Source: Acidimicrobiia bacterium
Lineage (GTDB): Bacteria; Actinomycetota; Acidimicrobiia; Spongiisociales; UBA5794
Length of the DNA stretch: 64,000 bases
NCBI GenBank assembly: GCA_041393965.1
Contig: JAWKJB010000002.1
Location: 339 to 64,338 of the forward strand
Direction of reading: 5' to 3'
A model generated the notes under the pieces. That model had not been told where the DNA came from and did no database searches. It saw nothing but the letters and a program-made list of their open reading frames with translations. Each line of letters starts with the position of its first letter. The stretch's first letter is position 1. The translations under genes were made by a program, and so were the position numbers. Below, piece after piece: positions 3,313 to 43,886 of this stretch.

Positions 3313-3351
3313 GCACCAGCGGAACTGTCAAAGCGGTGGTCGGCCGGTCCT

Positions 3352-3388
3352 GGCGCGAAGGCCGCGGGTTCGAATCCCGCCCGCGCTA
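3352..3388. other. GC-rich hairpin containing an exact tRNA T-loop-like 11-mer (GGTTCGAATCC). Either a bidirectional terminator between convergent genes or a remnant tRNA 3' fragment (att-like).
   Basis: Sequence GCGCGaagGCCGCGGGttcgaatCCCGCccGCGC. No D-arm, anticodon arm or 5' acceptor strand upstream, so it is not a complete tRNA. Confidence 0.3.
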
Positions 3389-3413
3389 CGAAGGGGAACC
3401 TTGGAACACCTAA

Positions 3414-3926
3414 TCAATCGATCTGATGGCTGTCTGTTTCGCTGAGGGTTTTGCGTAGGAGGGGCAGGGAGGCGCGGTCCTTGTCCCTGCCGGCTGCTTG
3501 TTTGCTGCGAATCACATCAGCCAAGGATGCCACCATGACGAAAAGTGCTGGCGATGTGCGGATTTGGGTGGAGTCGGCGGATCGTACGAGGTCTTTGTAG
3601 CCGGTTGTGCCGTCTGGCATGAAGACGAGATCAAGGTCGCCGTGGATCGTGGTCAATGTCCAGGAGTCCACGGATTGCAAGAAGCCCGGCTCTATCGGGA
3701 AGGCAAGCCCTTCGGGAGCTTCTGCGGTGCGTAGCTTGGCTTCAAGAGCCGTGAGCGCATCTGCGAGCTGGGTGAGGTTTTGGGCGTCGTTGGCTGGGGT
3801 GATGTCGATGTCCTGTGTGAGGAGCGGTGCGCCTCGGAGCCTTGCGGCGATGCCACCGATCACAATGAACTGCACATCGTGGTCGATGAGCACCTCGAGG
3901 AGGGCAACAGGATCGAACTCACGCAT
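3414..3926 (-). CDS. Minimal nucleotidyltransferase-fold protein (possible toxin/partner of the upstream XRE regulator)
   Basis: N-terminal hG[GS]...DhD NTase signature (FIVIGGIAARLRGAPLLTQDIDI). 8-nt overlap with the upstream XRE gene. Confidence 0.6.
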   Translation of the reverse strand: MREFDPVALLEVLIDHDVQFIVIGGIAARLRGAPLLTQDIDITPANDAQNLTQLADALTALEAKLRTAEAPEGLAFPIEPGFLQSVDSWTLTTIHGDLDLVFMPDGTTGYKDLVRSADSTQIRTSPALFVMVASLADVIRSKQAAGRDKDRASLPLLRKTLSETDSHQID

Positions 3927-4236
3927 GTGCAGCGTCCTGCATAGCCGTTAGGGCATTGACGGCTCGTGCCATGGACCCGAGTCGTTGTTCGGGGGTGACG
4001 GCAAGCTCTCGTCTGATGAGGGCGATGTCGTGATCGTCTCGTGGGGTGATGCTGATCGTCAGGTCGAAACCGGCTGCTCGCACGGCCTGCTCGACCGTCT
4101 CCAGCGAAGGCGAGGTGCGACCCCTCTCCCATCGGGCAACCACAGGCTGGTGAGTTCCCAGACGGCGGGCGAATTCTGCTTGGGTCAATCCAGCCCGTTT
4201 CCGAGCTTCGGCGATGATCCTTGCACTAGACGACAT
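3919..4236 (-). CDS. XRE-family helix-turn-helix transcriptional regulator
   Basis: Classic XRE HTH (AGLTQAEFARRLGTHQPVVARWERGRTSPSLETVEQ); first gene of a two-gene module. Confidence 0.75.
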   Translation of the reverse strand: MSSSARIIAEARKRAGLTQAEFARRLGTHQPVVARWERGRTSPSLETVEQAVRAAGFDLTISITPRDDHDIALIRRELAVTPEQRLGSMARAVNALTAMQDAAHA

Positions 4237-4249
4237 GCCTCATATCATA

Positions 4250-4261
4250 AACGATATCGTT
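4250..4261. promoter_or_regulatory. Perfect 12-bp palindrome AACGATATCGTT, with a second ACGATAT half-site 17 bp downstream, in the AT-rich region just upstream of the XRE gene. Candidate autoregulatory operator.
   Basis: Seen directly; local AT-richness contrasts with the ~68% GC genome. Confidence 0.4.
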
Positions 4262-4395
4262 GTCATACCAGATACGATATTTATCGAGGGTTCCATCGCG
4301 ATGGTCGTGGGAGTCGAGCGAGCCTCGGCGTCGTCGACCAGCGCCCAGCCGCTCAACCCGAGACGAATGCCTGCCGGGGGCGGGCCAATGGTTGC

Positions 4396-4869
4396 CTAAT
4401 CCGGCTCGGCCTCGTAGAACTCGGCCATGCGCTGCTCCATCTCCGATTGCGACAGGTCTTCGATGTGCTGCGCGAGACCCCAAGTGTGGCCGAAGGGATC
4501 GGCCAGCCGACCTCCCTTGTCGCCGTAGAACTGCATCTCCAAGGGGTAGACAACCTCACACCCGGCTGCGACTGCCCGCTCCGAGAGTGCGTCGACATCG
4601 TCGGTGTAGATGAACAGGGCTGCTGACGACCCGCCCAGGTTCTTGGGCGATGTGGTTGGACCGTCTGGCCACTCGTCACCCAACATCACCACGGAGTTGC
4701 CGATCCGGATCTCTGCGTGGGCAACCATCCTGTCGGGTCCTTCCATGCGGGGTTCAATCTCGGTCGCTCCGAATGCGTTGATGTAAAAGTCGATTGCCTC
4801 TGAACATGGGCTGACGGTGATCGCGGGTGTCACCGTTCCGAGGCGATCCGGAATCCCCGAGGCTGTCAT
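4396..4869 (-). CDS. VOC-family (glyoxalase/bleomycin-resistance fold, PhnB-like) protein
   Basis: ~157 aa from the internal ATG (MTASGIPDRLGTV...); the longer ORF N-terminus is Arg-rich junk. Confidence 0.65.
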   Translation of the reverse strand: MTASGIPDRLGTVTPAITVSPCSEAIDFYINAFGATEIEPRMEGPDRMVAHAEIRIGNSVVMLGDEWPDGPTTSPKNLGGSSAALFIYTDDVDALSERAVAAGCEVVYPLEMQFYGDKGGRLADPFGHTWGLAQHIEDLSQSEMEQRMAEFYEAEPD

Positions 4870-28568: not shown

Positions 28569-31124
28569 TCAGGGGATCGTGACCTGTACGAAGCCGCCGT
28601 GGCAGGTGGAGAGATCCGTGAGCTGACAGTTCGCGTTTCCGACCGCATCGACGGCTCGTACGCGCACCTCGTACACCCCCAACGAACTGAAGGGGCCGAA
28701 CTTGTTCGTGTAGATCCCAGTTCGGTCTCGCAGCATCAGGCCCCAGAACACGAATGGGTTCTTTCCCGATCGGAAGAACACCGAGACGGTTCCGATCCCA
28801 CTCGGGTCGGTCACTGAGGCCGTGAGCATCGATACATCCGGGGGGTTCCCGTTCGTGAAGATGGTGGCCGGATCGGCCTGAAACCCGGACACCTTCGGGC
28901 CGGTCGTGTCAGGAGCGACCGAGGTGGTTGGTGCTGGCGCAGTGGTTGTCGTGGTCGGCGCGGCCGATGAGGTGGTCGTGGTGGATGGCTCGGGCGCCGT
29001 GGTCGGCGTCGCGGCGCTCGATGTGGTGGCGTAGGACCCCGTGGCGTCCCCGGGGTCCACTGTCGCATCGCCGGGGGGTTCGTCGCCGGGTGGGTCGGCT
29101 TCGGGGTCGAATCCGATCGAGTCCTGTCGCTCGAACAGCACCGGGCCCCCGACGGCGGGGGAGGGCTCGCTCATCGCTTCCTGCAACGCTTCAGATGCCG
29201 CGGTCGTCGGGACTCGGACTGTGGTCCACACGAAGAGCCCGGCCGAGGTGAGAGCGGCAATGGCGAGGAAGGATGCTCCCACTCTCGCATAGGCGGTTTG
29301 GGTCCAAAAGAGCCCGACCGCCGCAAGGCCCGCGAGGGCCGTTGCGCTCAAGAAGACCCATGGAGGCAGGAGCGGCTGGCAATCGAGGCAACCCGGTGGT
29401 TCGACACCGACGGCGAATCGGACGAGCCTGAACCGCACAGAGGGCTCGCCGCCACCGGTTGGTTCACCGTCGGATGCGACGATGCTGTGGTGTGTCGCCG
29501 TGTAGGTGCCAGGCTCGAGGCAGGACGACTCCGCGACCAGCCCCGCGGTTCGCACCTCGAGCGGGATACACATCTCGCCGGGGGCCTCCACCGCGACCGC
29601 TCGTGTCGGCACGGGCAGCGTGCGGAAACCTGAGGCCTCGACGAGGGACTGACCGGCAACATCGAGGGGCCACCAACCCAGCTCCCATCCGATCGCGGCC
29701 GTCAGCCCTTCGTAGCCGATCAGATAGGCGCCCCATGACACATCGAGGGTCTCGTGGCGCTCGAGGTCGAAGGAGTACTCGATCGCCACATTCCCGTTCA
29801 CCCCGGTCGATGTGATGATCTCTCCCGGCCGGGCATGGCAACGATCGGGATTGCCGAGAAACGCGACATAGTCGCCTCCGGACCGCCAGCCGACCGTGTC
29901 GAGATGCTGGTGAGGGTTGTACAACGAAAGATCCGAATCCTCTTCACCGACATAGAAGTAGCCCTGGGGAAGGCAGTCGGCCCATAGGTACTCCTCGATC
30001 GGGGCCGACGGGAGCAAGAACGCTGTCGTGGACATGGGCGGCGAGAAGGTGACGGATTCGTTGTTGCCGATGTGCCACACATCTTCCCGAGGGCAGGGAA
30101 TGTCGAAGACGGGCTGGCCCCCTGGCCCGGACGCGCCAAGGTTCTGAGGAGCGACGCGGATCGGGGCATCGATCCCATCGGCTGGCCAGCAGAACACCCC
30201 AAGACCAGACGAATCGCCGAGAAGCCACGGTCGCGCCATGATGAAGATGTCGCCGGGACCGATCGCGTCACCGTCGTGGAAGACCGTGATGCGATGGACT
30301 TTGAGGGTCCACAGATTGTTCCATCCCCCGCTTTGTGATACGAGATCAGCGTCATCGAGGGCATCCCCAAGACCGGACGGTCTGAAGCCGGAACTGGGAT
30401 CGATAAGGCGGTTGGACGGGTCGGCCTCGACATAGGTGATCTCAAGCGCTGCGGGAGCCCCTCCGTCCGATGCGGCGATCTCGAGCCCCGCGCCGTCGAA
30501 GTGGCCAGCCGGATCCCGGATCGTGAACGCGATGTCCAACCCGTTCTGCCAGCTGACACCACTTCGAACCGCCGTCAGGAGCTCCGTGACATCGATCGGA
30601 TAGACCTGGCCTTCAACCCAATCGGCGGGCACGGCAACCGCCCAGCCAACATCGTCGCCGAGATCCGTTCCCGAACACGCTGGCGCATTGCCGGAGTTGA
30701 TTTCGCCGGCTGGGGCCCTCGGCCCTGCGTACACGGTGAGCCAGCGGGTCGAACCGTAGGTAGTGACGGGCGCCGCTGCGGTGGCGTTCAGCGTGGCGTG
30801 ACTGATCGCCAGCTCTTCGGGGAACGCAACATTGCGAAACAGGAGGGAGGCCATCGCCTCGTCACCGCCGTTGGCCCCGATCGCAAGGTCGCTGGCTGTG
30901 GTGTTGAAAGCGGTGTTGCACGGGTAAGCCTCCCCAGACGCGGGACGGGTGACGGTGATGTCGTCGGCCGGGTGCGACACGTGATGTGTCGTTGTGAACC
31001 CGTCGCTCGTTGCACCCGCGGATGCCGACACGATCACCATCAAGACGACGAAGATCGTCCCGATGATGGCGGCCGTGACGAGTTGTCGGCCAGGGATGCA
31101 GATTGTGCGGTCCTGCAAGAACAT
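28569..31124 (-). CDS. Large membrane-anchored surface protein: N-terminal TM, ~600-aa extracellular region, two TM helices, Pro/Thr/Ser-rich linker, ~110-aa C-terminal domain shared with the 35965-36846 protein
   Basis: Start at the internal ATG 31124 (MFLQDRTICIPGRQLVTAAIIGTIFVVLMVIV). The C-terminal TGPKVS...ASVTDPSGIGTVSVFF...GIYTNKFGPF...VRAVDAVGN is paralogous to the C-terminus of the 35965-36846 protein. Confidence 0.6.
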   Translation of the reverse strand: MFLQDRTICIPGRQLVTAAIIGTIFVVLMVIVSASAGATSDGFTTTHHVSHPADDITVTRPASGEAYPCNTAFNTTASDLAIGANGGDEAMASLLFRNVAFPEELAISHATLNATAAAPVTTYGSTRWLTVYAGPRAPAGEINSGNAPACSGTDLGDDVGWAVAVPADWVEGQVYPIDVTELLTAVRSGVSWQNGLDIAFTIRDPAGHFDGAGLEIAASDGGAPAALEITYVEADPSNRLIDPSSGFRPSGLGDALDDADLVSQSGGWNNLWTLKVHRITVFHDGDAIGPGDIFIMARPWLLGDSSGLGVFCWPADGIDAPIRVAPQNLGASGPGGQPVFDIPCPREDVWHIGNNESVTFSPPMSTTAFLLPSAPIEEYLWADCLPQGYFYVGEEDSDLSLYNPHQHLDTVGWRSGGDYVAFLGNPDRCHARPGEIITSTGVNGNVAIEYSFDLERHETLDVSWGAYLIGYEGLTAAIGWELGWWPLDVAGQSLVEASGFRTLPVPTRAVAVEAPGEMCIPLEVRTAGLVAESSCLEPGTYTATHHSIVASDGEPTGGGEPSVRFRLVRFAVGVEPPGCLDCQPLLPPWVFLSATALAGLAAVGLFWTQTAYARVGASFLAIAALTSAGLFVWTTVRVPTTAASEALQEAMSEPSPAVGGPVLFERQDSIGFDPEADPPGDEPPGDATVDPGDATGSYATTSSAATPTTAPEPSTTTTSSAAPTTTTTAPAPTTSVAPDTTGPKVSGFQADPATIFTNGNPPDVSMLTASVTDPSGIGTVSVFFRSGKNPFVFWGLMLRDRTGIYTNKFGPFSSLGVYEVRVRAVDAVGNANCQLTDLSTCHGGFVQVTIP

Positions 31125-31257
31125 GGCAACATCCTGCCGGACGGGGGTTGCGAAAAGGTTACCGATCGTCCTCGGCCGGTGCGGTGCCAACGACGACGAC
31201 GGCGGGATGCTCGCTGCTCCAGCTGGGTAGATTGAGCCGGGAGACGGAAAGGACCGC

Positions 31258-32385
31258 ATGCGCCCACAAACAGTGGACGAGAACCTGTTCGATGGACTTG
31301 CCGCCCGCCGAGGGACTTCTTTGGTTTCTATCGTTATCCCAACCCACGAGCGGGGTCGCGAGGTCACCCAGGACCCGATCAGGTTCAAGAACCAGGTGTC
31401 GCGTATCGACGAAGAACTGGAATCCCTTGGATGGAGACGGCGCAAACGAGCCGCGCATCTCCAAGGCGCCAAGGACCTCGTCGACGACCGTGAGTTCTGG
31501 GAACACCAAGGGCCGGGTCTCGCGTTCTACCTTGCCGACGACGGTGCTTCGTGGGCGATCGCGCTGGGCCATCGGCCCGAGCCTGCATTCTGGATCATGC
31601 CGACATTCGCCGTTCGGCCGCTGCTGATGGAGCTCACCGCTGTCGAGTTGGATGCTCTCGCCTTGAGCCGCGGCTTGGTCGGCCTCTACACGGTTTCGGC
31701 CCGGTCGGTGCGCCGTGTCGATGCCGACCTACCGGCCTCGTTCGATGATGTGAACTGGTTCGTGGATCGCGAGACCCAGCGGCAACAGCACCCCGACCGT
31801 GTCGGATCCGATCGGAATCGCCACGGTCACGATCCCAGATCCCAGGAGCACGAGGATCTCGCCCGATTCCTCCGCGAGGTGGACCGCGCCTTGCCTCCCG
31901 GCCCGCGAGAGCTGCCCCTCGTCGTCCTCGGTGACGACGACCTCGTCGCTCGATTCGCGAACATCACGGATCGTGATACGACAAGTCCGAACCGCAGCGG
32001 GTTTCCGACCTCGGTGTCTGATGAGCAGATTCGCGACATGGCGAAACCGATCGTCGAGGACGCCGAACAGGAACGCACGAACCGGTTCATCACCAAGGCA
32101 GTGGATCGAGCGGGCAGCGGGCAGGGAACCAGCCAGATCACCGAAGCCATCCGGGCCGCCCTGTCAGGTCGGGTCGAGCTGCTGATCACCGACATCGGCG
32201 CCGACCCGATCTGGGGGCGCATCGATGAGGCAACGCACCGTGTCACCGTGACCGAGGACCGGGGCGCCGACGATGTGGATCTCCTCGATCGACTGGTTGT
32301 GCTCACCACAAGCAACGGAGGCGATGTGTACGGTGTCATGGATGCCGTCGACGGACACCCGTTCATCGCGACCTACCGCTACTGA
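31258..32385 (+). CDS. Conserved hypothetical protein (possible eRF1/Dom34-like fold; speculative)
   Basis: 375-aa ORF with good protein-like composition; no diagnostic motif recognised. Confidence 0.45.
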   Translation: MRPQTVDENLFDGLAARRGTSLVSIVIPTHERGREVTQDPIRFKNQVSRIDEELESLGWRRRKRAAHLQGAKDLVDDREFWEHQGPGLAFYLADDGASWAIALGHRPEPAFWIMPTFAVRPLLMELTAVELDALALSRGLVGLYTVSARSVRRVDADLPASFDDVNWFVDRETQRQQHPDRVGSDRNRHGHDPRSQEHEDLARFLREVDRALPPGPRELPLVVLGDDDLVARFANITDRDTTSPNRSGFPTSVSDEQIRDMAKPIVEDAEQERTNRFITKAVDRAGSGQGTSQITEAIRAALSGRVELLITDIGADPIWGRIDEATHRVTVTEDRGADDVDLLDRLVVLTTSNGGDVYGVMDAVDGHPFIATYRY

Positions 32386-32416
32386 ACACCATTGAGAACA
32401 GGACGCGCAGCACCGT

Positions 32417-33679
32417 TTGGCACTGGACCCGATGTTGTCGCCTGAAGTGCTCCCCGGGGCCTCGCTCGTGTTGGCGGTTGTGCTTGCCGTCTTCCTTGCG
32501 GCCGCAGAGGCGTCCCTGCTGCGAATCACGCCCGTGCGGGCTCGAACCATCGCCGAAACGGGGGACAAGAGGGCTGTCCGTCTCGTCGATCTCGTCGAGC
32601 GACTCCCGGAAGTACTCAACCTGATCCTGCTCCTCGCACTCTTGTCCCAAATCGGGGCTGCCACCATTGCCGGGGTGCTCGGCCAGAGGATGTTCGGCAG
32701 TGTGGGGGTCACGGTTGCGTCGGTTGTCCTCACCGTCTTCCTCTTCATCTACGGGGAGGCGATCCCGAAGACCTACGCCATTCGCCATGTGGAGCGGACC
32801 GCATTGTTTGTAGCCCGACCCGTTGCCATCGCCGAGCGTCTTTTCCGCCCATTGGTGCGGCTGCTGGTTTGGATCGCCGACATCCAGCTCCCCGGCAAAG
32901 GGATCACCACAACGGCAACCGTGACCGAGGACGAACTGAGGCTTCTGGCCATCGAAGCCGCAGAAGAGGGAGAGATCACATCGACCGACAGGGACTTGAT
33001 CGATCGGGTGTTCCGTTTCGGCGACCGCCGCGTCGACGACATCATGATCCCACGACCCGACATCGTGGCCGTGAGCGTGGAAGCATCCCTCGATGATGCT
33101 CTCGACATTGCCCTTCGAGCAGGACATCGTCGCCTTCCCGTCTATGAAACCGACCTCGATGAGATCACTGGCGTGGTGCGCATGCGCGATTTGGTGTCGG
33201 CGCGCGACCGCGGCGAGACGAACCTTCGGTCCGTTACGCGTCCACCCCTGATCGTTCCGGAATCCAAGCGGGTCAGCCGCCTGCTCACCGAGATGCAGGA
33301 ACTCAACAACCATATGGCGATGGTCATCGACGAATACGGGGTGACCGTCGGGCTCGTCACCGTCGAAGATGCCGTCGAGAGCCTCGTCGGCAGCATCACC
33401 GACACGACCGAAGCATCCGACATCATCGAAGAGAGCCACGGCCGTTGGCATGCGTCTGGCTCCGCGCCGGTGGAGGATCTCGCCGAGGCGTTGGAGGCCG
33501 AACTCCCGGAGGGGGACTGGAACACGGTGGCTGGCCTCATGCTCGGCGTGGCAGGCAAACTCCTCGAGCCGGGTGACCATGTCGAGATCGCAGGGTTCGA
33601 CTTTCGGGTGCGCTCGGTCCGGGGCCGGAGGATCACCAGCATCGACATCCGGGCGCCGTCGCTTCCGACCGAACGGTGA
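32417..33679 (+). CDS. HlyC/CorC-family transporter (DUF21/CNNM TM domain + CBS pair + CorC_HlyC)
   Basis: 4-TM N-terminus, tandem CBS region, C-terminal transporter-associated domain. Confidence 0.75.
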   Translation: MALDPMLSPEVLPGASLVLAVVLAVFLAAAEASLLRITPVRARTIAETGDKRAVRLVDLVERLPEVLNLILLLALLSQIGAATIAGVLGQRMFGSVGVTVASVVLTVFLFIYGEAIPKTYAIRHVERTALFVARPVAIAERLFRPLVRLLVWIADIQLPGKGITTTATVTEDELRLLAIEAAEEGEITSTDRDLIDRVFRFGDRRVDDIMIPRPDIVAVSVEASLDDALDIALRAGHRRLPVYETDLDEITGVVRMRDLVSARDRGETNLRSVTRPPLIVPESKRVSRLLTEMQELNNHMAMVIDEYGVTVGLVTVEDAVESLVGSITDTTEASDIIEESHGRWHASGSAPVEDLAEALEAELPEGDWNTVAGLMLGVAGKLLEPGDHVEIAGFDFRVRSVRGRRITSIDIRAPSLPTER

Positions 33680-33716
33680 GATGGGCCCGGATCCCGCCCG
33701 GGCGTACACTCTCGCC

Positions 33717-34154
33717 ATGACCTCGACCTCCACGAGCAGTGTTTGGCCGCATCTCGCGTATCGTGATGTCACAGCCGCGGTTGCGTTCCTCCACGACGCG
33801 TTCGGCTTCGTGAACACCGCGATGCACACCGCCGATGGAGACGATGCCGTGGTCAAACACGCGGAGATGCGCCTGCCCGAAGGAGGCGGCATCATGATCG
33901 CGACCGTTGGGAGGGACGACTCGGCATTTGGTCGCCGGGTTCCCGGCAACGACTCCGTCTATGTCGCATGCGACGATCCCGATGCCGTCTTCGAGCGCGC
34001 CGTGGCTGCGGGAGCGGTCGTCGTGCAAGAACCGATCGATGAGAAGCACGGTTGGCGAGGATTCACCGTTCGTGATCCTGAGGGGACCCTGTGGAGTTTC
34101 GGAACGCACCAGGGAGCGCGGGATGACGATTTCGGTGTCGAGCACCCAGCCTGA
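33717..34154 (+). CDS. VOC-family (glyoxalase/bleomycin-resistance) protein
   Basis: WPHLAYRDVTAAVAFLHDAFGF...EMRLPEGG...GFTVRDPEGTLWSF pattern; start at the internal ATG. Confidence 0.6.
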   Translation: MTSTSTSSVWPHLAYRDVTAAVAFLHDAFGFVNTAMHTADGDDAVVKHAEMRLPEGGGIMIATVGRDDSAFGRRVPGNDSVYVACDDPDAVFERAVAAGAVVVQEPIDEKHGWRGFTVRDPEGTLWSFGTHQGARDDDFGVEHPA

Positions 34155-34914
34155 CCATTCGAACGGTGGACCGCCGCTCGTGTTCGTTCACGGTGCATGG
34201 CACGCGGGCTGGTGCTGGGATCCCTTCGTCGGGTTCTTCACCGAGCTCGGCTACCACACGCACGCGCTGGATCTTCAGGGCCATGGGGATTCGCCTGGCA
34301 ACCTTCGTTGGTCACGCATTTCGGACTATGTCGGCAATGTGGCGGAGGTGGTCGCGTCGCTCGACACCGCACCGGTTCTCGTCGGGCACTCGATGGGCGG
34401 GCTCATCGTCCAGCACTACCTCGCTGCCAACGGTGTGAGAGCCGGAGTGCTCGTCGCCCCGGTCCCCACGAGGGGAGCGATCGGTGCGACTTGGCGGGCC
34501 GCTCGCCGACATCCGCTGGCGTTCCTGCGCTCGAACCTGACCTTCTCACTCGGCCCTATGGTCGACGATCCCGACCGTGCCGCCGGTCTCCTGTTCGGCC
34601 CCAACGCCGATCCGGGGGTCGTCGCGGCGACCGTTGAGCGTCTCGGTTCCGAGTCGTACCCGGCGTATCTCGACATGATCTTCCGCCGCCCGAAACCCCA
34701 ACTGGTCACCGATCCCGTCCTCGTGCTCGGCGCCACCGAGGATGCTCTGTTTTCGGTAGCGGAGATCCGAGCGACCGCGAAACGCTACGGGACCGAAGCG
34801 GTCTTGTTCGACGGCATGGGACACGACATGATGCTCGATGCCGGCTGGCAGGAACCGGCCCAGGTGGTTGCCGACTGGCTTGCGGGCCTTCCGGACGCGG
34901 ACCCAGGACGGTGA
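34123..34914 (+). CDS. Alpha/beta hydrolase
   Basis: LVFVHGAWHAGWCW, GHSMGG nucleophile elbow; start at the internal ATG with a GGGAG SD. Confidence 0.7.
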   Translation: MTISVSSTQPDHSNGGPPLVFVHGAWHAGWCWDPFVGFFTELGYHTHALDLQGHGDSPGNLRWSRISDYVGNVAEVVASLDTAPVLVGHSMGGLIVQHYLAANGVRAGVLVAPVPTRGAIGATWRAARRHPLAFLRSNLTFSLGPMVDDPDRAAGLLFGPNADPGVVAATVERLGSESYPAYLDMIFRRPKPQLVTDPVLVLGATEDALFSVAEIRATAKRYGTEAVLFDGMGHDMMLDAGWQEPAQVVADWLAGLPDADPGR

Positions 34915-34979
34915 GGCCGCCGTCCGAGCATCGAGGTCGACGCCGTATCCTCAGGCATCGGCGATCATGAGGAAGGGCC

Positions 34980-35288
34980 ATGGGCGAGAGCGGCTCCGGT
35001 GGAGCAATCCAGGTGAGCTATATCGAGACCGACATCGACTGCCACAGCTGCTTCGACGAGGTGCGGCACGGGTTGGCCGCCATCCCCGAGGTCGAAGGCG
35101 TCGAAGCCGACATGGCAGCTGGGTGCTTCGTGGTCACGCACCGGACCGATGCCGAACACCTGCTTCCGGTCGTCACCGAACTCGGGCACCGTATCGCTGT
35201 CGGGGACAACGGTGAGCTCGTGATGAGCCGTGCCACGGCGGTGACAGCACCCGGGTGCACCCGCCACCACGCAAACCCGGACCACTGA
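34980..35288 (+). CDS. Small CxxC protein (HMA-like metal-binding candidate)
   Basis: CHSC motif near the N-terminus plus ferredoxin-like beta-alpha-beta spacing. Confidence 0.35.
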   Translation: MGESGSGGAIQVSYIETDIDCHSCFDEVRHGLAAIPEVEGVEADMAAGCFVVTHRTDAEHLLPVVTELGHRIAVGDNGELVMSRATAVTAPGCTRHHANPDH

Positions 35289-35298
35289 ACCCGATCCG

Positions 35299-35931
35299 AT
35301 GCTGTCGCCGAGGCTCGCCCGCATCATTGCCCTTGCGCTGCTCGGGACCTCGTTTGCCTGCGTGTTCCTCGCTCCGCTGGCAATGCCAAGCGGCTACTCG
35401 GTGCTTGAGCACTCGATCAGCGAGTCGGCAGCACAGGGCCTCACGAATGCATGGATTGCCCGGGTCGGGTTCGTCAGCTTCGGACTCTCGGTGATCCTGC
35501 TTGCGGCCACCCAAGCAGTGCGGTGGTCGAGGTGGGGACAGGTCGCCCACGGCATTTTCGGCGTGTCGATGCTCGCGGTGGCGGTGTTCTCGCACAAGCC
35601 CTTCGCTAATGGCCCCTTCGACGCGTTTGAAGACTCGCTGCACTCGATCGGGGCGTCGGTGGTGGGTGTCGCCTTCATCGTTGGCGTCCTTCTGGTGATC
35701 GTCGCAGGTGGGCCCGTGAGCCGGTCGCGTCGCGTCTTCGACTGGTTTGCGGTAGCGGTGGCTCTCGTCGCCCCGCCTCTGATGCTCGTCGCCCCGAGCT
35801 TGGCCGGGGCGTTCCAGCGAGCCATGTTCGGTGTCGCCTACCTGTGGTACGCGGTTGAAGCGATGACGGTCACCGACCGGGGTGTCCGGGAGGCGCGTCC
35901 GGGAGACGCGGGATCACTGCGGCACTTGTGA
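35299..35931 (+). CDS. DUF998-family membrane protein
   Basis: 6 TM helices with conserved HS.SE...NAW..R pattern. Confidence 0.55.
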   Translation: MLSPRLARIIALALLGTSFACVFLAPLAMPSGYSVLEHSISESAAQGLTNAWIARVGFVSFGLSVILLAATQAVRWSRWGQVAHGIFGVSMLAVAVFSHKPFANGPFDAFEDSLHSIGASVVGVAFIVGVLLVIVAGGPVSRSRRVFDWFAVAVALVAPPLMLVAPSLAGAFQRAMFGVAYLWYAVEAMTVTDRGVREARPGDAGSLRHL

Positions 35932-35964
35932 CCGCCATGATTTGGTAAGTACACTATTGAGGTC

Positions 35965-36846
35965 ATGATGTCCGTGAAGGCGGCGCTGTTCGTTGGCGCA
36001 GCTGTCATCGTTGGTGGGGCTGCTGTGGGGGTCGCCGCCGACCAAACCGGCGCCCTCTCTCCGCTTCCCGAACCGAGTGTCTCGGCTCACCTCGACGAGG
36101 TTCCCTACCTGGAGTGCCCTGACGGGGATCGACTCGGCGAACTGCACCGGGGAGATCGGGTGTTCGCAACGGGACGAACCGACGACCTCGCGTGGTTGGA
36201 GGTCCGCGCCCCGTACGATGTGGCAACCGGCGTGTGGGTGGAGGCGGCCTGGCTGACACCCGACGCCGACCTCGACGCCCTCCCGGTGGTGTCCTGCCAA
36301 ACGGATACCGCGCCTGCGCCGACCACGACGACTACGACGAGACCCCTCGCTCCTTCGACCACCCTTGCTGGGGCGACCACCTCAACCACGATCGGGCCGA
36401 CCTCGACCACGAACGCTCCGACCTCGACCACGAACGCTCCGACCACCACCAGTACCACCGCCACGACGACCACGACAACCACCGTGCCCGACACCACCGG
36501 ACCGACGATTTCGAACCTTGCATCCGAAGAAGCCCAGATCTGGGAGGAAGCCAATTACGGGGGATGCCCGACCCAAGTTCACACGACGATCATCAGCGCG
36601 TCGGTGAGCGACCCGTCCGGTGTCGGCACCGTGATCCTCGGATGGGAGGTTGGCTCGGCGAGTGGGAGCACACCGATGGGACATGTGGGAAGTATCTACA
36701 CGGCTGAACTCGGGCCGTTCGACGACACCACCGTGAGTGCCGATGAACCGATCTACCTATCGGTGACTGCCCATGACACCGTCGGCAACCCGACCATGGT
36801 CGACTCGATCGACCTTGTCGTCTTGAGAAACTGCACGATCGCATGA
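35965..36846 (+). CDS. Secreted protein with signal peptide, Thr-rich linker and the same C-terminal ~110-aa domain as the 28569-31124 protein
   Basis: PDTTGPTIS...ASVSDPSGVGTV...SIYTAELGPF...VTAHDTVGN aligns to the large protein's C-terminus. Confidence 0.6.
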   Translation: MMSVKAALFVGAAVIVGGAAVGVAADQTGALSPLPEPSVSAHLDEVPYLECPDGDRLGELHRGDRVFATGRTDDLAWLEVRAPYDVATGVWVEAAWLTPDADLDALPVVSCQTDTAPAPTTTTTTRPLAPSTTLAGATTSTTIGPTSTTNAPTSTTNAPTTTSTTATTTTTTTVPDTTGPTISNLASEEAQIWEEANYGGCPTQVHTTIISASVSDPSGVGTVILGWEVGSASGSTPMGHVGSIYTAELGPFDDTTVSADEPIYLSVTAHDTVGNPTMVDSIDLVVLRNCTIA

Positions 36847-38732
36847 CGATGTCCTTGCGATCGATCGCTCTGTTCGGACTGCTCGCCATTTCAGGTTTCG
36901 CAGCGGGCCTGCTGATTTCGGACGCTCTCATGGACGATCCCGTGGTCACGCTCCCCGAACCGGCGCAGTACTACCCGATTCCTCAGATCGCCGTTGCCGC
37001 TGAGCCGGTGGCCGACGGGGATCCCGGCGGTGTGATCGGGCCGGTGGAGGTTCCCGCCCCCGCCCCGCTGTTCGAAGAATCGATCCCGGTCTACCCGACG
37101 ATCTACGAAGAGGACGGAACGCCCGTTCCCGATCTCCCGCCAAGCTTGCCGGGCGGCGCCTCATCGACAAGCACCACGACAACAGAGCCTGCCACCACGA
37201 CGACAACGGGGGCCGCCACCACGACGACGCTCACCCAAACGGGGCCTTCACCACCGGCGGCAGGACCCGCAGGAGCGACCGTCACCATCGCTCGGTTCAC
37301 CGACCTATGCGCAAGCAGCCTGACGCCTGCCTGTCCTCCCGGCGTCGGCGCCCTCGTGCTATACGGTGCGGACGGGCCAAAGCCGCCGCCATTGGCGATC
37401 GAGATCGTTCCTGACGCCGATGCCAGCGTGCTGGTGGGGCTGCGATGCGACCCCGGGTGGCCGTCGGGCACCGAGATCCCGGTGGTGCTGTTCAGCAACC
37501 GTCCCTTCAGCCTCCTGCATGTCAGGCTCAAGGCCGCGGACGGCTCCGAACTCGACGCCGTCGTCAACACCAAGTCGGAACCCTCCGAGCACGCGGCATA
37601 CGACACCCGAGTCAAGATGGGAAAGCCGCTCCACCCGACGCTTGCCGAAGGGGCACACACCTGTGTCACGCTTCGAACGGACAAGAAAGGGAAGCCTCCG
37701 GACCGGAATGGCCCGTTCGAAGTCTCCGTCCTTGGATACACGAACGACGACACCGAGTCAAAGTCGGTGCGCTTCACCGGCCACTACACGGCACAGCGGC
37801 CACCCGTGCGAATCTTCCCCCTCGACGCACACCGTGCCTATGTCGTTGTGCCTCAGCGAGCCAACGACACCGTCAATGTGTGGGCATACGATCAGCGCGA
37901 AGCCGAGTCGGTTGGCCGGTACGACGCGGGATGCAGCCTGCCGCCGGCGGACACGACCGGTGCTCTTGCACTGCGTCGCTCCCCGCTCAAGGGTCCGACA
38001 CCGGTTGCGACCGGCACAGCCGGCTATCCGTGGGACCGCGACTACAACCGTCAGACGATATGGGATCTCGAACTGCGAGACGCCACCCGGTACACGCTGT
38101 GTGTCAATCACCTCCCTGACGACGAAACCGAAGAGTGGGTGATCGAGACGGCGAACGACCTCGAACTCGATGTGTACGGCGGAGCCCTCCGCCACACGAA
38201 GACTGCGGTCGCCGGCACGCTGCTCGTCCACCTCCTCGGGGTTCCTCATTGCTTTGTCGCAAGCCCCGATGTGCGCCAAGGTGATGGCCGCACCCCGTTC
38301 CCGGATGTGACGGTCTACGGCGACGGAACCTATCCGTGGGGAAGGGGTGCCGACATGTGCCACAGCGCTGGCTGGAGGATCGGGCCGACGATCGAGCTCC
38401 GGGCGTTGTTCCCCGACGGCACAAACAAGGTGTATGGCACGATCGCCGTCCCAACCGCGACGCTCAAGGCGCACTGTCTCCGGGACCTGTCACAGCAACC
38501 ACCGACCGGTCAGCCATGCGAGCAGCATCTCGAGTGGCGCAACCAGAACATCCTCTGTGGGGGAGGGTTCGGCACGCCGAGCTGCAAAGGTGATCTGTTC
38601 TTCAGCCTCGAAGTCTCGATGTGGATGTCCGACGGGCGAACCAACAACCGTACCAACCCGACGGATTGGGGCATCTCATACATCGCGCACGCCGCCGACC
38701 CGCCCGACACGGTGCCGTTGCCATCGGGTTGA
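36843..38732 (+). CDS. Secreted/anchored cysteine-rich protein with N-terminal signal anchor and Thr-rich linker; translationally coupled (ATGA) to the upstream gene
   Basis: 629 aa; ~14 Cys in the globular part; no recognisable catalytic motif. Confidence 0.55.
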   Translation: MTMSLRSIALFGLLAISGFAAGLLISDALMDDPVVTLPEPAQYYPIPQIAVAAEPVADGDPGGVIGPVEVPAPAPLFEESIPVYPTIYEEDGTPVPDLPPSLPGGASSTSTTTTEPATTTTTGAATTTTLTQTGPSPPAAGPAGATVTIARFTDLCASSLTPACPPGVGALVLYGADGPKPPPLAIEIVPDADASVLVGLRCDPGWPSGTEIPVVLFSNRPFSLLHVRLKAADGSELDAVVNTKSEPSEHAAYDTRVKMGKPLHPTLAEGAHTCVTLRTDKKGKPPDRNGPFEVSVLGYTNDDTESKSVRFTGHYTAQRPPVRIFPLDAHRAYVVVPQRANDTVNVWAYDQREAESVGRYDAGCSLPPADTTGALALRRSPLKGPTPVATGTAGYPWDRDYNRQTIWDLELRDATRYTLCVNHLPDDETEEWVIETANDLELDVYGGALRHTKTAVAGTLLVHLLGVPHCFVASPDVRQGDGRTPFPDVTVYGDGTYPWGRGADMCHSAGWRIGPTIELRALFPDGTNKVYGTIAVPTATLKAHCLRDLSQQPPTGQPCEQHLEWRNQNILCGGGFGTPSCKGDLFFSLEVSMWMSDGRTNNRTNPTDWGISYIAHAADPPDTVPLPSG

Positions 38733-38833
38733 CCGACGGGTGGTTTGGTCCCGCCGGGTTGGCTGCCCGCCGATAGGATGGGTCGCGGATGAAGCGGTGG
38801 CATGTCCCGGCGCACCATGGGAGGGCCCTGATC

Positions 38834-39763
38834 GTGACCGATGAGCTTGAGCGTTGGGTTGGCGCGGGTCTCCTCGACGAGGAAACCGCCGACCGGATCA
38901 GACACTATGAAGCGACGAGGCAGCAAGCCCCAGCTTCCGGTCCGTCCGACATCGGGCGAGGCGTCGAAGCCGCCGCGTACGCGGGAGCGGCGTTGGTGCT
39001 CGTTGCAGCGGTGATCTTCACCGTCGAGTTCTGGGACCGCATCAACTCGTGGGCACAGTTCGGGATGATCGCGGCTGCCGCACTCGTTCTCCTCGGAGTC
39101 GGAATCGTCTTCGGCCGCAGTGAGCTTCCGTCGCTTCAGCGGGCGCAGATGTTCGCGTGGCTGCTCACCGTGGTCGCTGTCTTCTTCGCGGCCATGGATG
39201 GCTTGCGCGACATTGCCGACATCGATGGGCAGGCAGCGTTCCTGTGGTCGTCCTTTGCCGCGTTCGGTGTCGCTGCCGCACTGTGGGGGCTGCGCCGCTC
39301 GTCGCTCCAGATGGTGGCGATGGGGGTCGCTACTGCTGTGGCAACCATGGCGGTGATTGCCCAGATTCCGGACGAGCCAGAGTGGTTCTACGGCGTTGCA
39401 CTGTTCGTGCTCGGGCTGTTGTGGTTCGTGCTCGGGCTCGGGGGCCGGTTCACGCCCCGTCGGACGAGCCTCGTTCTCGGTGGCCTCGGCATGGTGCTGA
39501 TCGCCTTTCCCGAAGCAGATCAGTTGCCGTGGCCGCTGCTCGGGCTCGGCGTCAGCATCGGCCTGATGGTGCTATCGGCCTTCGCCGATGAGGGGATCCT
39601 GCTCGGAGTCGGTGTGGCGGGACTGTTCGTCTATGTGCCGATCGCCGCCGTTGAGGTCTTCGGCGACGGTGTGGGTGTGCCGCTTGCGATCCTCATGACG
39701 GGCCTGGTGCTCCTCGGCACGGTCGTTGTCGTGGTGCGGAGGCAGCGGGCACAGGAGCCCTGA
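38834..39763 (+). CDS. DUF2157-family membrane protein
   Basis: GTG start with GGGAGG SD; N-terminal soluble DELERWVGAGLLDEETADRI followed by ~8 TM helices. Confidence 0.6.
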   Translation: MTDELERWVGAGLLDEETADRIRHYEATRQQAPASGPSDIGRGVEAAAYAGAALVLVAAVIFTVEFWDRINSWAQFGMIAAAALVLLGVGIVFGRSELPSLQRAQMFAWLLTVVAVFFAAMDGLRDIADIDGQAAFLWSSFAAFGVAAALWGLRRSSLQMVAMGVATAVATMAVIAQIPDEPEWFYGVALFVLGLLWFVLGLGGRFTPRRTSLVLGGLGMVLIAFPEADQLPWPLLGLGVSIGLMVLSAFADEGILLGVGVAGLFVYVPIAAVEVFGDGVGVPLAILMTGLVLLGTVVVVVRRQRAQEP

Positions 39764-39795
39764 ACGACCCCTTCGAACCGTGTCCGGCAGGGCGA

Positions 39796-40344
39796 CTACG
39801 GCGCTTCGACCGGTACCCGCCGGTAGTGGGCGTAGGGATCGAAATCGCGCCGGGTCGGTGGCGCGACGAGCAGCGCGACGATGGCCCAGTTCACAAGGCC
39901 GGTCAGGATCCCGAACCACGCAGCCGGTGCGGGTGGGCTCGCGGCGAAACCGGCAAGCGCCGCGGAGACCGAGAAGATGCCGAGCATCCCAAAGACGAAC
40001 ATCGCCCCCTCCCGCGCCCAGATCTGGCGAAACGCGAGGCCAACGGTCAAAACCGCCGTGGTGACCACCGTCGCGCCGAACACGACCGTGATGATCGCCG
40101 TGGTGTTCTGTGCTATCTCCCCAGGGTTGTTTCCGCCTCCTCCGAAACCGAGCGACCCCCGGGCGAAACTGTTGTCGATCCGGCTCGGATCGATCCAACT
40201 CAGGAGGGAACCGAGGGTGATCCAGCCGAACACGGCCGTCAGTCCCGCCGCAACCACGACGGCCGCTGCGGTCGTTCCATGGTCGTGCATCCACCGTTTC
40301 ACGGCGTCAAGCGTACCCCGCCGTTCACGAACCGGGCCTGACAA
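39796..40344 (-). CDS. Membrane protein, hypothetical
   Basis: 4 TM helices. Confidence 0.4.
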   Translation of the reverse strand: MSGPVRERRGTLDAVKRWMHDHGTTAAAVVVAAGLTAVFGWITLGSLLSWIDPSRIDNSFARGSLGFGGGGNNPGEIAQNTTAIITVVFGATVVTTAVLTVGLAFRQIWAREGAMFVFGMLGIFSVSAALAGFAASPPAPAAWFGILTGLVNWAIVALLVAPPTRRDFDPYAHYRRVPVEAP

Positions 40345-40390
40345 AGGATGCTGTGCAGGGGAGGGGGATGGTTCGCGCTATTGGTTCGAC

Positions 40391-42091
40391 CTATTGGGCG
40401 AAGACCCGGATCTCGTGCAGGATCACCCACCCGTCCATGTCGGTCGTATCGACCCGGACATGGCGGATTCCCGGTTGTGGTGTGAAGGTCACCGTGAGCA
40501 CATCTCCTTGGGCGGCGTCGGCCGTGACCTCGCCAACGGGTGATCCCCGACCCGATTCACCCTCGGCTCGCACATACACCCGGTGGGTCTGGGGACCCGG
40601 CGGTGAGACATGGCCGATCAGGATCTCGACCCGTGCGACGGTCTGGGGGCTCCCGAGGTCGATCTCCGCCCACTGTGGAGGTCCGGCGGCGGCGCTCCAC
40701 CAGGTTGCGTCGGACCCATCGACGAGTTTGGCTCCTCCGTACTCGGTGCTCTCCTCCGCTGAGACGGTGACGGAGCGATCGAGCGCAAGGTTGTTGCTTG
40801 CGAACGGCCCGACATCACACGGATCAGGTCGGACCGAGGGAGATATAGCCCGTGCGATCGTGGCGTCATCGACCTCGACGGGAATCACCTCGTCGTCCTT
40901 GTCCGCCCCCCAGAACCACAAGAGCCATCCGTCGAACCCATACACACACGACGCGGCCTGCCACCGAGCCATCACCGCCGCACCCTCGGACGCGACCGGA
41001 TACGCCGATTCGAACGCTCCGAATTCCCCAAGGAGCATCGGCGTTGCGGGCTCGTCGTCAACAATGCCGTACGACGAGGCGATCGCGTCCCAGACACCGC
41101 CGAGTCCCGGGTACGCGTGCAGGTCAACGAAATCGAGCGTCGACTCGTCGATGATGGCGGCCGGGACGACCCAACGATTGTCAAGCCCAACCCGTCCCGA
41201 TTCTGGATCCTCAGCCGAAAAGAAACCCATCGTGATCAGCGCGCCGTCGTCGGCTGCGCGGATGGCGTCTCCGACATTGGTGATGTAGCTGCGCAGATTG
41301 TTCACGACCATGGCCGCGACCGCTTCGTCATCCGACAGGTCGTAGGTTGCACCGTCAGCGGTGGTCACGGACCCCGTTGTGATCGAAATGGGTGGGACAT
41401 CGCGCAGGTAGAACTGTTCGTTTGCGAGCTGCCAGCCGAGGATGTGGTGCGTCGGGGCGCCGCGCGCGTGGAGCCCTTCGATGAGCTCCGTCCAATACTC
41501 GATCGCTATCTGCTGCCCCTCCGGTGCGAGATAGAGGGAGTTGCGATACCCACCGAACGGTTCACAGCACGGGAGACGGTTCGAGAAGCCAGGGTCGGGG
41601 ACATCGTTGCTGGTGGGAAGGGCGACGAGGCCGTGCGCCTCGAGGCGAGTCAGGAGATCCGCAAGATGGTCGAGATACTCCGCACGAATCCCGGTGTCCG
41701 TGGTGGTGCACTGCATACACATGTCGAGGAAGAACCGCACGGTGTTCAGGCCGAGCGCCGCAATGGCGTCGAGTTGGGATTCCACCCATTCCTCGTCGTA
41801 GAGCGCGAAGAGCCGATCACCTCCTCCTCCGCCGATCTTGAGCAGGAGGTTGACACCGATCGGGACGAAGGTCGTGTCGGTGCGCCGGTCGACGAAACGG
41901 TCGCCGTCGATCTCGATCCAGCGAGATGGCGGGGCTGGGGTGGTGGTCGTTGTTTCGGGGGGAGGTGTTGACGAGGTCGACGGGGTGGTGGTTGGCGGTG
42001 GAGGGGCGGTCGTTGGTGGCGACGAAGCGGTACACGCTGCGATGAGCGCGGCACCGACGATCGCAACCGCAAGGGACCGTTTGGACATCAT
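40391..42091 (-). CDS. Glycoside hydrolase family 5 lipoprotein with a C-terminal F5/8 type C (discoidin/CBM32-like) domain
   Basis: Lipobox LIAAC; Thr/Pro linker; GH5 NE catalytic motif (GWQLANEQ); C-terminal LVDGSDATWWSA...WAEIDLG discoidin signature. Confidence 0.7.
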   Translation of the reverse strand: MMSKRSLAVAIVGAALIAACTASSPPTTAPPPPTTTPSTSSTPPPETTTTTPAPPSRWIEIDGDRFVDRRTDTTFVPIGVNLLLKIGGGGGDRLFALYDEEWVESQLDAIAALGLNTVRFFLDMCMQCTTTDTGIRAEYLDHLADLLTRLEAHGLVALPTSNDVPDPGFSNRLPCCEPFGGYRNSLYLAPEGQQIAIEYWTELIEGLHARGAPTHHILGWQLANEQFYLRDVPPISITTGSVTTADGATYDLSDDEAVAAMVVNNLRSYITNVGDAIRAADDGALITMGFFSAEDPESGRVGLDNRWVVPAAIIDESTLDFVDLHAYPGLGGVWDAIASSYGIVDDEPATPMLLGEFGAFESAYPVASEGAAVMARWQAASCVYGFDGWLLWFWGADKDDEVIPVEVDDATIARAISPSVRPDPCDVGPFASNNLALDRSVTVSAEESTEYGGAKLVDGSDATWWSAAAGPPQWAEIDLGSPQTVARVEILIGHVSPPGPQTHRVYVRAEGESGRGSPVGEVTADAAQGDVLTVTFTPQPGIRHVRVDTTDMDGWVILHEIRVFAQ

Positions 42092-42168
42092 GGTACGGTA
42101 GTCGTTCGGAGTCGGAGAAAACCGCCTCAGAATTGTATGGAGCCACACCAGTCAGGTAGGTTTCGGGG

Positions 42169-43217: not shown

Positions 43218-43886
43218 CTACGAGCGGCGCAGCGCGTACGCGACCGCTTCGGCTCTTGAGTGCACGCCGAGCTTGTTCAGGATGTGCTGGATGTGGTTCC
43301 GCACGGTTGCCTGGGAGAGAAACAGCCTCTCCGCGATCGTCGGCCCGTCGAGGCCTTCGGTGAGCAGCTCGAGGACTTCTCGTTCGCGGGGGGTCAGGAC
43401 ATCGAGTCGTTCATCCGTCTTCTCGGTTCCCAGGGTCCATCCATCGAGGCGGTCGACGATGAGACGCTCGAGCTCGGGGGGAAGCGAGATCTCACGGATC
43501 AGATGCACCATCCGGCACTCATCGCGCATCTCGATCGGCGGAATGATCGTCGATGCGCTCAGCCACAGGGTCCGGTCCTTCGACGATCGGCCGAGCACCT
43601 CCCGAGGTCCCATGATCTCGTCGGGATCCCCGAGCTCGGCGGCGGGGCAGTTGGGACCGCAGACGGCGTCGCCGCATCGGTCTCGCCAACAGAGGATCTC
43701 CGCGCACGGTCGTCCGAGCGCTTCTTCCGCGGTGTAGCCGAGGAGGGAGCTCGCGGCGTCGTTCCACGCGATGATCTCGAGGGAGCCGTCCATGGCGACC
43801 ATCGCGTCACCGGTTCGACCGAGGACATCGAGCATTCCGGCGAGGTCTTCACTCACCGTGCTGTCGATGGAAGTCGTTGAAGCCAT
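43218..43886 (-). CDS. PAS-domain LuxR-family transcriptional regulator
   Basis: N-terminal PAS; C-terminal LuxR HTH (LTPREREVLELLTEGLDGPTIAERLFLSQATVRNHI). Confidence 0.8.
   Translation of the reverse strand: MASTTSIDSTVSEDLAGMLDVLGRTGDAMVAMDGSLEIIAWNDAASSLLGYTAEEALGRPCAEILCWRDRCGDAVCGPNCPAAELGDPDEIMGPREVLGRSSKDRTLWLSASTIIPPIEMRDECRMVHLIREISLPPELERLIVDRLDGWTLGTEKTDERLDVLTPREREVLELLTEGLDGPTIAERLFLSQATVRNHIQHILNKLGVHSRAEAVAYALRRS

Follow-up and report, generated by a model that had tools for sequence, protein, structure and literature searches.

Comparison of loci points to a two-gene envelope module among the Thr-rich protein genes of an Acidimicrobiia genome stretch

The window examined in this study is a stretch of 64 kb (64,000 nucleotides) of contig JAWKJB010000002.1 in the assembly GCA_041393965.1, a metagenome-assembled genome (MAG) labelled 'Acidimicrobiia bacterium'. 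Its span from 28569 to 42148 holds genes for several Thr-rich proteins that are predicted to reach the cell surface; we call the genes discussed here A, B, C, D, E and F. The question raised by this locus is whether these genes form one surface system or whether a smaller unit among them is the one that evolution keeps. An initial annotation of the DNA had taken the former view. That is, it described A, B, C, D and F as a single candidate system for adhesion or polysaccharide processing, centred on a domain, taken to be novel, that A and B share. All five open reading frames (ORFs) named there are present in the ORF list at the coordinates given, and the GC content at their third codon positions, 0.75-0.80 from end to end, resembles that of housekeeping genes. 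What that annotation observed was largely correct, and its interpretation was correct in part. The comparison of loci described below gives a narrower answer. Judged from sequence, the sole conserved unit in the region is the pair of genes B and C, a predicted two-gene envelope module that is so far unannotated, and the other genes are unrelated neighbours.

Conservation and domain structure of the gene pair B-C

Gene B (35965-36846, + strand) encodes a protein of 293 aa. Gene C (36843-38732, + strand) encodes a protein of 629 aa (NCBI MEZ5175542.1, R2823_04980), for which NCBI places the start two codons later, giving 627 aa. The stop codon of B and the start codon of C overlap in an ATGA at 36843-36846 (+). 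This overlap suggests translational coupling of the two genes, and on this point the initial annotation was right.

A gene of the C family directly follows a gene of the B family in every locus for which downstream DNA was available. These are about 15 metagenomic loci (L001, L003, L004/5, L007, L008, L009, L010 (twice), L011, L012, L013 (cut), L015/16, L018, L021, L022 and L023). Where the genes were called, the spacing between B and C was -4 to +12 nt, and the genes flanking the pair differed in every locus. We did not find D, E or F beside the pair in the other loci, save for a discoidin lipoprotein in L001. This lipoprotein, encoded after C at 3336-4841 (-), has only its discoidin/CBM32 (carbohydrate-binding module family 32) domain in common with F, at 41% identity over 111 aa, and its N-terminal ~370 aa gave no family match. 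Conservation of the cluster in relatives had been recommended as a check on the single-system view. When this check was run, B and C proved to be kept together, while A, D, E and F were not kept with them, and the claim of a coherent five-gene cluster was not supported.

The word-based search returned 23 matches for the B family, and the profile search added many more representatives. A scan of GTDB with four close B proteins gave 8 loci; a GTDB scan with patterns of the C family gave no confirmed locus. The orthologues of C obtained by homology search were 39-51% identical to it. The source organisms are uncultured members of Acidimicrobiaceae, Ilumatobacteraceae/Ilumatobacter, Microthrixaceae and Dermatophilaceae, including 'Ca. 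Phosphoribacter baldrii', together with one MAG labelled Chloroflexota. In the last of these (L008 / L020, JBBISJ010000004.1) the B-C pair lies on a 134-kb contig. Its presence there reflects either horizontal transfer or mis-binning.

Two loci, L003 and L010, carry tandem duplications together with short proteins that consist of a transmembrane (TM) segment, a linker and one or two copies of an Ig-like domain. The order in L010 (8001-15241) is B, two short TM-linker-Ig proteins (one of them with two Ig copies), C, B and C. In L003 (137-5703) the order is a short Ig protein, C, B and C.

The domain structure of B could be read from its hydropathy and from an AlphaFold model. The hydropathy scan (Kyte-Doolittle) detected one hydrophobic segment in B, at the N-terminus (aa 6-24), with about five residues before it. 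Next comes an SH3b-like five-stranded barrel (aa 44-111; 36094-36297, +), which was modelled with a predicted local distance difference test score (pLDDT) of 79-97. It is followed by a Thr-rich linker (aa 115-173; 36307-36483, +) with pLDDT <60 and by a C-terminal Ig-like beta-sandwich (aa 175-293; 36487-36843, +), which is treated in the next section. The model was built on an alignment of 23 sequences.

The N-terminal domain of B is probably a divergent SH3b domain. SH3_3 (PF08239) was the top Pfam family, below threshold, in 9 of 16 members (best E-value 2.8e-5), and B itself scored 16.5 bits against a cutoff of 27 (E 0.0095). The likeness to SH3_3 consists in the five-strand barrel of the model and in the pattern L-x-R-G-D-x-V ... 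W-x-E-V ... V-W-V. B differs from that family in falling below the gathering cutoff and in having a conserved Cys pair, Cys51/Cys111, that flanks the domain. Within the HRGDRV motif the residues G-D-R are invariant. We considered whether the RGD in HRGDRV could be an integrin-type motif and dismissed it; the tripeptide is part of the standard SH3b strand 'L-x-[KR]-G-[DT]-x-V'.

The protein encoded by C has a TM anchor predicted from hydropathy (aa 7-25, +), a conserved Pro-rich segment with a Thr-rich stalk (aa 30-145, +) and a Cys-rich ectodomain of ~480 aa that is mostly beta (aa 148-629, +) and represents an unannotated family. C contains 12 Cys residues, 10 of which are invariant in eight orthologues, so the description of C as Cys-rich holds good. 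About 60 further positions are invariant in the same eight sequences. Neither single-sequence nor profile searches of Pfam, NCBIfam and PDB sequences gave a match for C, and a comparison of C with the Ig-like domain by hhalign was likewise negative. By its sequence, the C family is without detectable relatives outside itself. Its distant members, of 840-1064 aa, resemble C in the TM segment, the spacer, an R-F-x-D-x-C-A...C-P-x-G motif and the region next to it, and differ beyond. They retain the N-terminal third only. From the strand periodicity and from FN3-like sequence patterns, C is probably a chain of disulfide-stabilised beta-sandwich modules.

The Ig-like domain shared by B and A

A second question concerns the C-terminal domain of ~110 aa that B shares with A, which the initial annotation had described as novel. 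That the two proteins share such a domain was borne out. In BLASTP, residues 739-830 of A and 176-275 of B formed an alignment of 107 aa with 36% identity (E 8e-6), and a hidden Markov model (HMM) built from 17 B-family domains, with A left out, matched A 738-837 at an i-E of 1.2e-14. The family has a recognizable signature, namely a PDTTGP start, the motifs DPSG, GPF and A-x-D-x-x-G-N, and a Cys pair (C201/C290 in B). The four motifs PDTTGP, DPSG, GPF and A-x-D-x-x-GN align in register between A and B. The copy in A (aa 738-851; 28572-28913, -) diverges from the B type: the first conserved Cys is missing, and two Cys residues stand close to the end in its place.

The novelty of the domain was not upheld. 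The AlphaFold analysis that had been proposed as a check gave, for B, an all-beta sandwich over aa 175-290 with pLDDT 84-98. The top 50 Foldseek matches of this sandwich in the PDB were Ig-like sandwiches, with a probability of ~1.0 and E-values from 5e-4 to 3e-2. They included the IgSF domain of the P. gingivalis PPAD (5e-4), CRIg, PILR, Calx-beta, the HPI S-layer and the Big domains of an ice-binding adhesin, as well as BhCBM56 (5t7a; E 7e-3, TMt 0.56, root mean square deviation (rmsd) 3.5 A), of the CBM56 family that binds beta-1,3-glucan.

The Pfam results point in the same direction at lower scores. On the full-length proteins the shared domain had no Pfam match at E<=0.1. When 18 B-family members were searched one by one, Big_7 was matched in 8 and Big_9 in 6 (best E-values 4.2e-4 and 3.2e-5, respectively), all of them below gathering scores; B itself reached 18.4 bits with Big_7, below the gathering threshold of 24.1. 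Other matches below threshold among these members were to PKD, cadherin-like, HYR and He_PIG families, PKD and PKD_4 being matched weakly in 2-3 of the 18 (E ~0.01-0.04). NCBI has named one B-family member, MBK7611280.1, a 'PKD domain-containing protein'.

With the domain profile, HMMER retrieved 4,121 representatives at E<=1e-3, headed by giant proteins with 10-40 matched stretches, and in the seven of these that we scanned Pfam called Cadherin, Big_9, CBM_56, Big_13 and Big_7. One of them (P0029) has 22 Cadherin stretches together with Big_9. In another (P0037) the Pfam CBM_56 stretch at 881-943 coincides with the best stretch of the domain profile, 880-956; the Pfam link of the shared domain to CBM_56 is thus an indirect one, made through shared matches. 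The layout of B itself, an SH3-like domain and the C-terminal domain in a protein of 260-400 aa, occurs in about 40 of the 150 best representatives.

Because the AlphaFold model (pLDDT >90), the Foldseek matches, the Pfam matches below threshold, the profile matches and the PKD name given by NCBI agree, we conclude that the shared domain belongs to the bacterial Ig-like superfamily, within which it forms a divergent subfamily, and is not a new fold. With the bacterial Ig-like domains of the E-set kind, namely Big_7 (PF17957), Big_9 (PF17963), Cadherin (PF00028), PKD and CBM_56 (PF22184), it shares a beta-sandwich of ~100-120 aa, the terminal A-x-D-x-x-G-N strand motif, profile matches in both directions and Ig-like Foldseek matches that include BhCBM56. 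It differs from them in several respects. No B-family member reaches a Pfam gathering score; the domain stands as a single C-terminal copy on a membrane-anchored stalk and not in a tandem array; and it has its own PDTTGP start and the Cys pair Cys201/Cys290 in B, the Cys residues of A being arranged otherwise. It had been said in advance that the claim of novelty would fall if the domain proved to be a common, named fold and if the proteins had well-annotated orthologues. The named fold, bacterial Ig-like, was found; well-annotated orthologues were not.

The genes around the pair

If B and C are the conserved unit, it is necessary to ask what the other genes of the span are. Gene A (28569-31124, -) encodes a protein of 851 aa (NCBI MEZ5175534.1, R2823_04940). 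Both A and C are exact matches to proteins of the 'Acidimicrobiia bacterium' MAG at NCBI, where each is named 'hypothetical protein'. The GC content at third codon positions is 0.72-0.81 along A and C, and because this equals the value for leuC or the P-type ATPase of the window, A and C are real genes.

The A protein consists of an N-terminal hydrophobic segment, an ectodomain of ~550 residues (aa 38-585; 29370-31013, -), two adjacent hydrophobic segments (aa 587-636; 29217-29366, -), an acidic/Pro and Thr-rich linker, and the C-terminal Ig-like domain. The two hydrophobic segments are a putative TM hairpin, which would place both of its flanks outside the cell. No homologue of the ectodomain was detected. 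A word-based search with residues 1-699 among 5.8 billion clusters returned only A itself, the ectodomain gave nothing against Pfam (E<=10) or by phmmer against the PDB, and hhalign against the C family gave a probability of 0.4%. An impression that residues 60-240 might be a DNRLRE/CBM96-type module had no HMM support and was rejected. By these searches, A is an orphan specific to its lineage, in which the Ig-like module has been put to use again. We observed that the order of parts in A is the topology expected of a fused C-type and B-type protein; this is an analogy only, the ectodomain having no homology to C.

Gene D (38789-39763, +; 324 aa) encodes a polytopic membrane protein of the DUF2157 family, as had been reported, with a Pfam E-value of 1.5e-12 and a score of 47.9 bits against a cutoff of 32.4. 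Since D is absent beside C in the other loci, it is not part of the conserved module. Its neighbour E (39796-40344, -) encodes a small protein with four TM segments and without a family.

Gene F lies in the ORF 40391-42148 (-), with a likely start MMSKRS at 42091 (gene 40391-42091). Its product carries a lipobox, LIAAC (IAAC at ORF aa 36-39, read from the sequence), followed by a Thr/Pro linker, a catalytic domain of the type of glycoside hydrolase family 5 (GH5) in clan GH-A (40814-41926, -) and a C-terminal F5/8 type C / CBM32 domain (40418-40771, -). The last was assigned by Pfam (F5_F8_type_C, 3.6e-10; 40.5 bits against a cutoff of 28.2), and it also matched the Paenibacillus glucanase/chitosanase structure 4zxe at 2e-8. 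The catalytic domain aligned with GH5 mannanases (3ziz, 8.5e-4; 3vup, 0.024). In these alignments WQLANE of F (aa 239-244) stands opposite WELANE and DLHAYPG opposite FHMYPG of 3ziz, while LLGEFG stands opposite VVGEFW of 3vup. With Pfam Cellulase (PF00150) the catalytic domain stays below threshold, reaching 13.2 bits (E 0.063) where 23.5 are required.

We compared F with the GH5 beta-mannanases that carry CBM32. F has their NE acid/base, HxY and GEF nucleophile motifs in order, and its CBM32 is above the Pfam cutoff. It differs in falling below the Cellulase cutoff and in being a lipoprotein on a Thr/Pro stalk. F is a predicted lipoprotein with a GH5-like (mannanase-type) domain, whose catalytic motifs are intact, and a CBM32 domain. 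The earlier description of F as a lipoprotein with GH5 and a discoidin-like CBM is in agreement with this result, and the accompanying statement that none of the large extracellular domains has a recognisable catalytic motif is untrue for F, where NE, HxY and GEF are present.

As for the composition of the window, Thr-rich runs, taken as >=10 Thr in 25 aa (at least 10), are confined to A, B, C and F among all ORFs of the 64 kb. Together with the hydropathy results, this count agrees with the earlier view of Thr-rich, exported or membrane-anchored, unannotated proteins. An explanation of the Thr-rich linkers as a genome-wide habit was rejected for the window on the same count. The GC content is 0.64-0.66 across 28-42 kb, the same as in the flanks and the rest of the window, and no mobility genes were seen among the window ORFs. 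A scan of 34.8-42.4 kb for promoters and terminators gave matches no more than expected by chance.

A lies on the strand opposite to B and 4.8 kb away from it. Between them are seven unrelated genes on the + strand, which include a baeRF_family3 gene, a CNNM/CBS/CorC transporter, a VOC/glyoxalase, an alpha/beta hydrolase, an HMA-like and a DUF998 gene; genes of the housekeeping type are thus scattered through the span. The baeRF_family3 protein (bacterial archaeo-eukaryotic release-factor-like; Pfam 4.9e-21) is encoded directly beside A on the opposite strand, at 31258-32385 (+). On the other side, 4.5 kb downstream of C, a protein of 222 aa (43218-43886, -) has a C-terminal helix-turn-helix (HTH) of the LuxR/GerE type, as read from its translation.

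Regulators in relatives and the possible role of the pair

What, then, might B and C do? Some relatives of the pair are associated with regulators. In L012 (198-4913) and L015 (2400-5310), a gene for a sigma factor of the extracytoplasmic function (ECF) type overlaps the beginning of the B-like gene by 8 nt, and a C-like gene follows. The B-like proteins of these two loci have ~30 extra cytoplasmic residues, and this extension, together with the overlap, suggests an anti-sigma role for B in the L012/L015 clade. Furthermore, in five representatives from the domain profile search (P0090, P0104, P0108, P0110 and P0156), all of them from Actinomycetota, one polypeptide joins an ECF sigma domain to the same Ig-like domain, with a TM segment and a Ser/Thr-rich linker in between. 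A zf-HC2 (ZAS) match was obtained in P0110, and an HxxxCxxC motif could be read in the two fusion sequences that we inspected.

Regulators of another type, the large ATP-binding regulators of the LuxR family (LAL), adjoin the B-C pair in L009 (5293-7899), L013 (2474-5110), L014 (1197-3959) and L023 (10120-12561, -). Pfam assigned AAA_16 and GerE to those of L009 and L013. The L014 regulator was assigned by its 59% identity to that of L009, and the L023 regulator by its C-terminal LuxR-type HTH. In L013 an ORF of 74 aa, sigma-region-4-like in appearance, lies between the LAL regulator and B.

The closest described layout is that of the actinobacterial ECF52 sigma factors, such as SCO4117 of Streptomyces coelicolor, in which a sigma part, a ZAS part, a TM segment and a Pro-rich linker end in a carbohydrate-binding module (PMC5826349). 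Relatives of the B domain likewise end proteins composed of ECF sigma, zf-HC2, TM and a Pro/Ser/Thr-rich linker. In contrast, B of the window has neither a sigma nor a ZAS part, the ECF52 proteins carry an NPCBM-type module and not the Ig-like domain of A and B, and no C-like partner is described for ECF52. B of the window, with five residues before its TM segment, is not an ECF52-like fusion; sigma and zf-HC2 parts occur in distant relatives only. Because B has about five residues before the TM segment and because no such gene adjoins it, the copy of the pair in the window cannot signal by the sigma route. The B-type ectodomain does sit where sigma factors of the ECF52 type bear their sensory module, and this analogy supports a ligand-binding role for it.

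Starting from the domain homology, the two domain folds of B, the conservation of the pair and the regulator associations in relatives, all of which we observed, we propose the following picture. B and C would be made together by co-translation, each tethered by its N-terminal helix. B would be a single-pass protein, probably with its N-terminus inside, exposing a disulfide-clamped SH3b-like domain, a Thr-rich stalk that is probably O-glycosylated, and the terminal Ig-like sandwich. The Pro/Thr stalks, which may be long enough to cross the wall, would push the folded parts outward, so that B and C act jointly, as a pair that binds or senses, on the outer side of the cell wall. The SH3b and Ig-like (CBM56/Big-like) modules of B may hold a wall or extracellular glycan, or C itself, and C may supply a large exposed surface rich in beta strands. 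Since B has only about five cytoplasmic residues, the pair in the window would be a regulator-less version, structural or adhesive in nature. That B and C act together as an envelope binding pair is in our opinion somewhat better than an even guess; for any specific ligand our confidence is far lower.

Several points weigh against this picture. The topology, the glycosylation, the interaction of B with C, the ligand and the function are all matters that we infer. The hydrophobic segment of B could be a cleaved signal peptide (VAA|D) instead of an anchor, and the Pfam matches of both B domains, SH3b and Ig-like, fall below gathering thresholds. The model of C failed, with a mean pLDDT of 35 on an input of four sequences, and showed almost nothing but beta strands; the Foldseek matches of this model, tandem FN3/Ig proteins and Factor XIII barrels, were set aside at a TM-score of ~0.1 and an rmsd of 14-28 A. 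The invariant His, Asp, Glu and Arg residues of C leave room for an enzymatic role. Likewise, the discoidin lipoprotein beside C in L001 makes it conceivable that the pair has some connection with glycan-binding lipoproteins such as F.

The other explanations can be weighed against the same evidence. That A, B, C, D and F form a single cell-surface island, an adhesion or polysaccharide-processing system around a novel domain, is suggested by the confinement of all four Thr-rich proteins of the window to a span of 13.6 kb, by the glycoside hydrolase-like lipoprotein F with its CBM32, and by the lipoprotein with a related discoidin domain (41% identity) that adjoins C in L001. Yet seven unrelated genes separate A from B, there is no shift in composition, A was without a homologue in the word-based search, and the other loci, each with different flanks, have none of D, E and F next to the pair. 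The domain, moreover, is a divergent Ig-like one and not a new fold. Synteny already largely refutes the island, and we consider it very unlikely. Still less can be said for the idea that the similarity of A and B is a low-complexity or compositional by-product of the neighbouring Thr-rich linkers. Both domains do follow Thr-rich runs, and the pairwise E-value is only 8e-6; however, the HMM made without A matches A at 1.2e-14 over 100 non-repetitive residues, the four motifs are in register, and the domain folds at pLDDT >90. This idea is already refuted, and its probability is practically nil.

Two further explanations concern the function of the pair itself. B and C might be a signalling module in which B-type anti-sigma factors or transducers use their SH3b and Ig-like ectodomains to follow the state of C or of a glycan in the envelope; the window would then hold a derived copy that still senses and has its output through another partner. 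The sigma genes of L012 and L015 that overlap B-like starts and precede a C-like gene, the five ECF sigma/Ig-like fusions with zf-HC2 in P0110, the LAL regulators beside the pair in four loci and the parallel with the layout of ECF52 sigma factors (PMC5826349) all speak for this explanation. The short cytoplasmic part of B in the window speaks against it, as do the lack of an adjacent sigma, ZAS or LAL gene, the equal lack of regulators beside the close orthologues in L001, L003, L004, L007 and L010, and the absence of a recognised anti-sigma domain in the ~30-aa N-terminus of the sigma-linked B proteins. We regard this explanation as doubtful. It is also conceivable that C acts outside the cytoplasm as an enzyme that has escaped recognition, with the wall or a polysaccharide as its substrate, for instance, and that B is its targeting or anchoring subunit. 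Eight orthologues of C (33-48% identity) have the invariant polar residues D154, R201, D203, S218, N219, E249, R256, H272, D328, D398, R399, D408, E518, E564 and R566, and SH3b- and CBM56-like modules such as those of B are typical companions of wall- or glycan-active enzymes. Against this, not even profile searches linked C to a family in Pfam, NCBIfam or the PDB, its predicted secondary structure is almost wholly beta strands in sandwich-like runs, and its distant relatives keep the N-terminal third only, which means that the putative active-site residues are not all retained. An enzymatic C accordingly seems unlikely to us, and we prefer the reading of B and C as a binding pair.

A more far-reaching reading may be mentioned. 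B and C may be the core of an undescribed actinobacterial envelope sensing system in which B monitors C or a C-bound glycan, wired according to the lineage to ECF sigma factors, either encoded by an overlapping gene or fused in a sigma/ZAS protein, or to LAL regulators, the locus in the window being a regulator-free form that is either ancestral or derived. We put this forward tentatively and regard it as doubtful too. If it were true, the C family would represent a new fold or family of envelope co-receptor.

For annotation, a suitable name for the proteins of the B family is 'SH3b and Ig-like domain membrane protein', and F may be entered as a GH5-like/CBM32 lipoprotein, while C and the ectodomain of A should stay 'hypothetical'. 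Taken together, we see in these results a useful annotation and a modest lead, with no surprise.

If B and C do work as a unit, they would constitute an envelope module of two proteins that has so far escaped annotation, present in the Acidimicrobiia families Ilumatobacteraceae, Acidimicrobiaceae and Microthrixaceae, in Dermatophilaceae and in one MAG that bears the label Chloroflexota. Water, soil and activated sludge are rich in these groups, whose cell surfaces have to our knowledge hardly been studied. Since some relatives are linked to ECF sigma factors, the B-type ectodomain may be a sensory module new to sigma factors of the ECF52-like kind, and this link may offer a testable handle on what the pair does.

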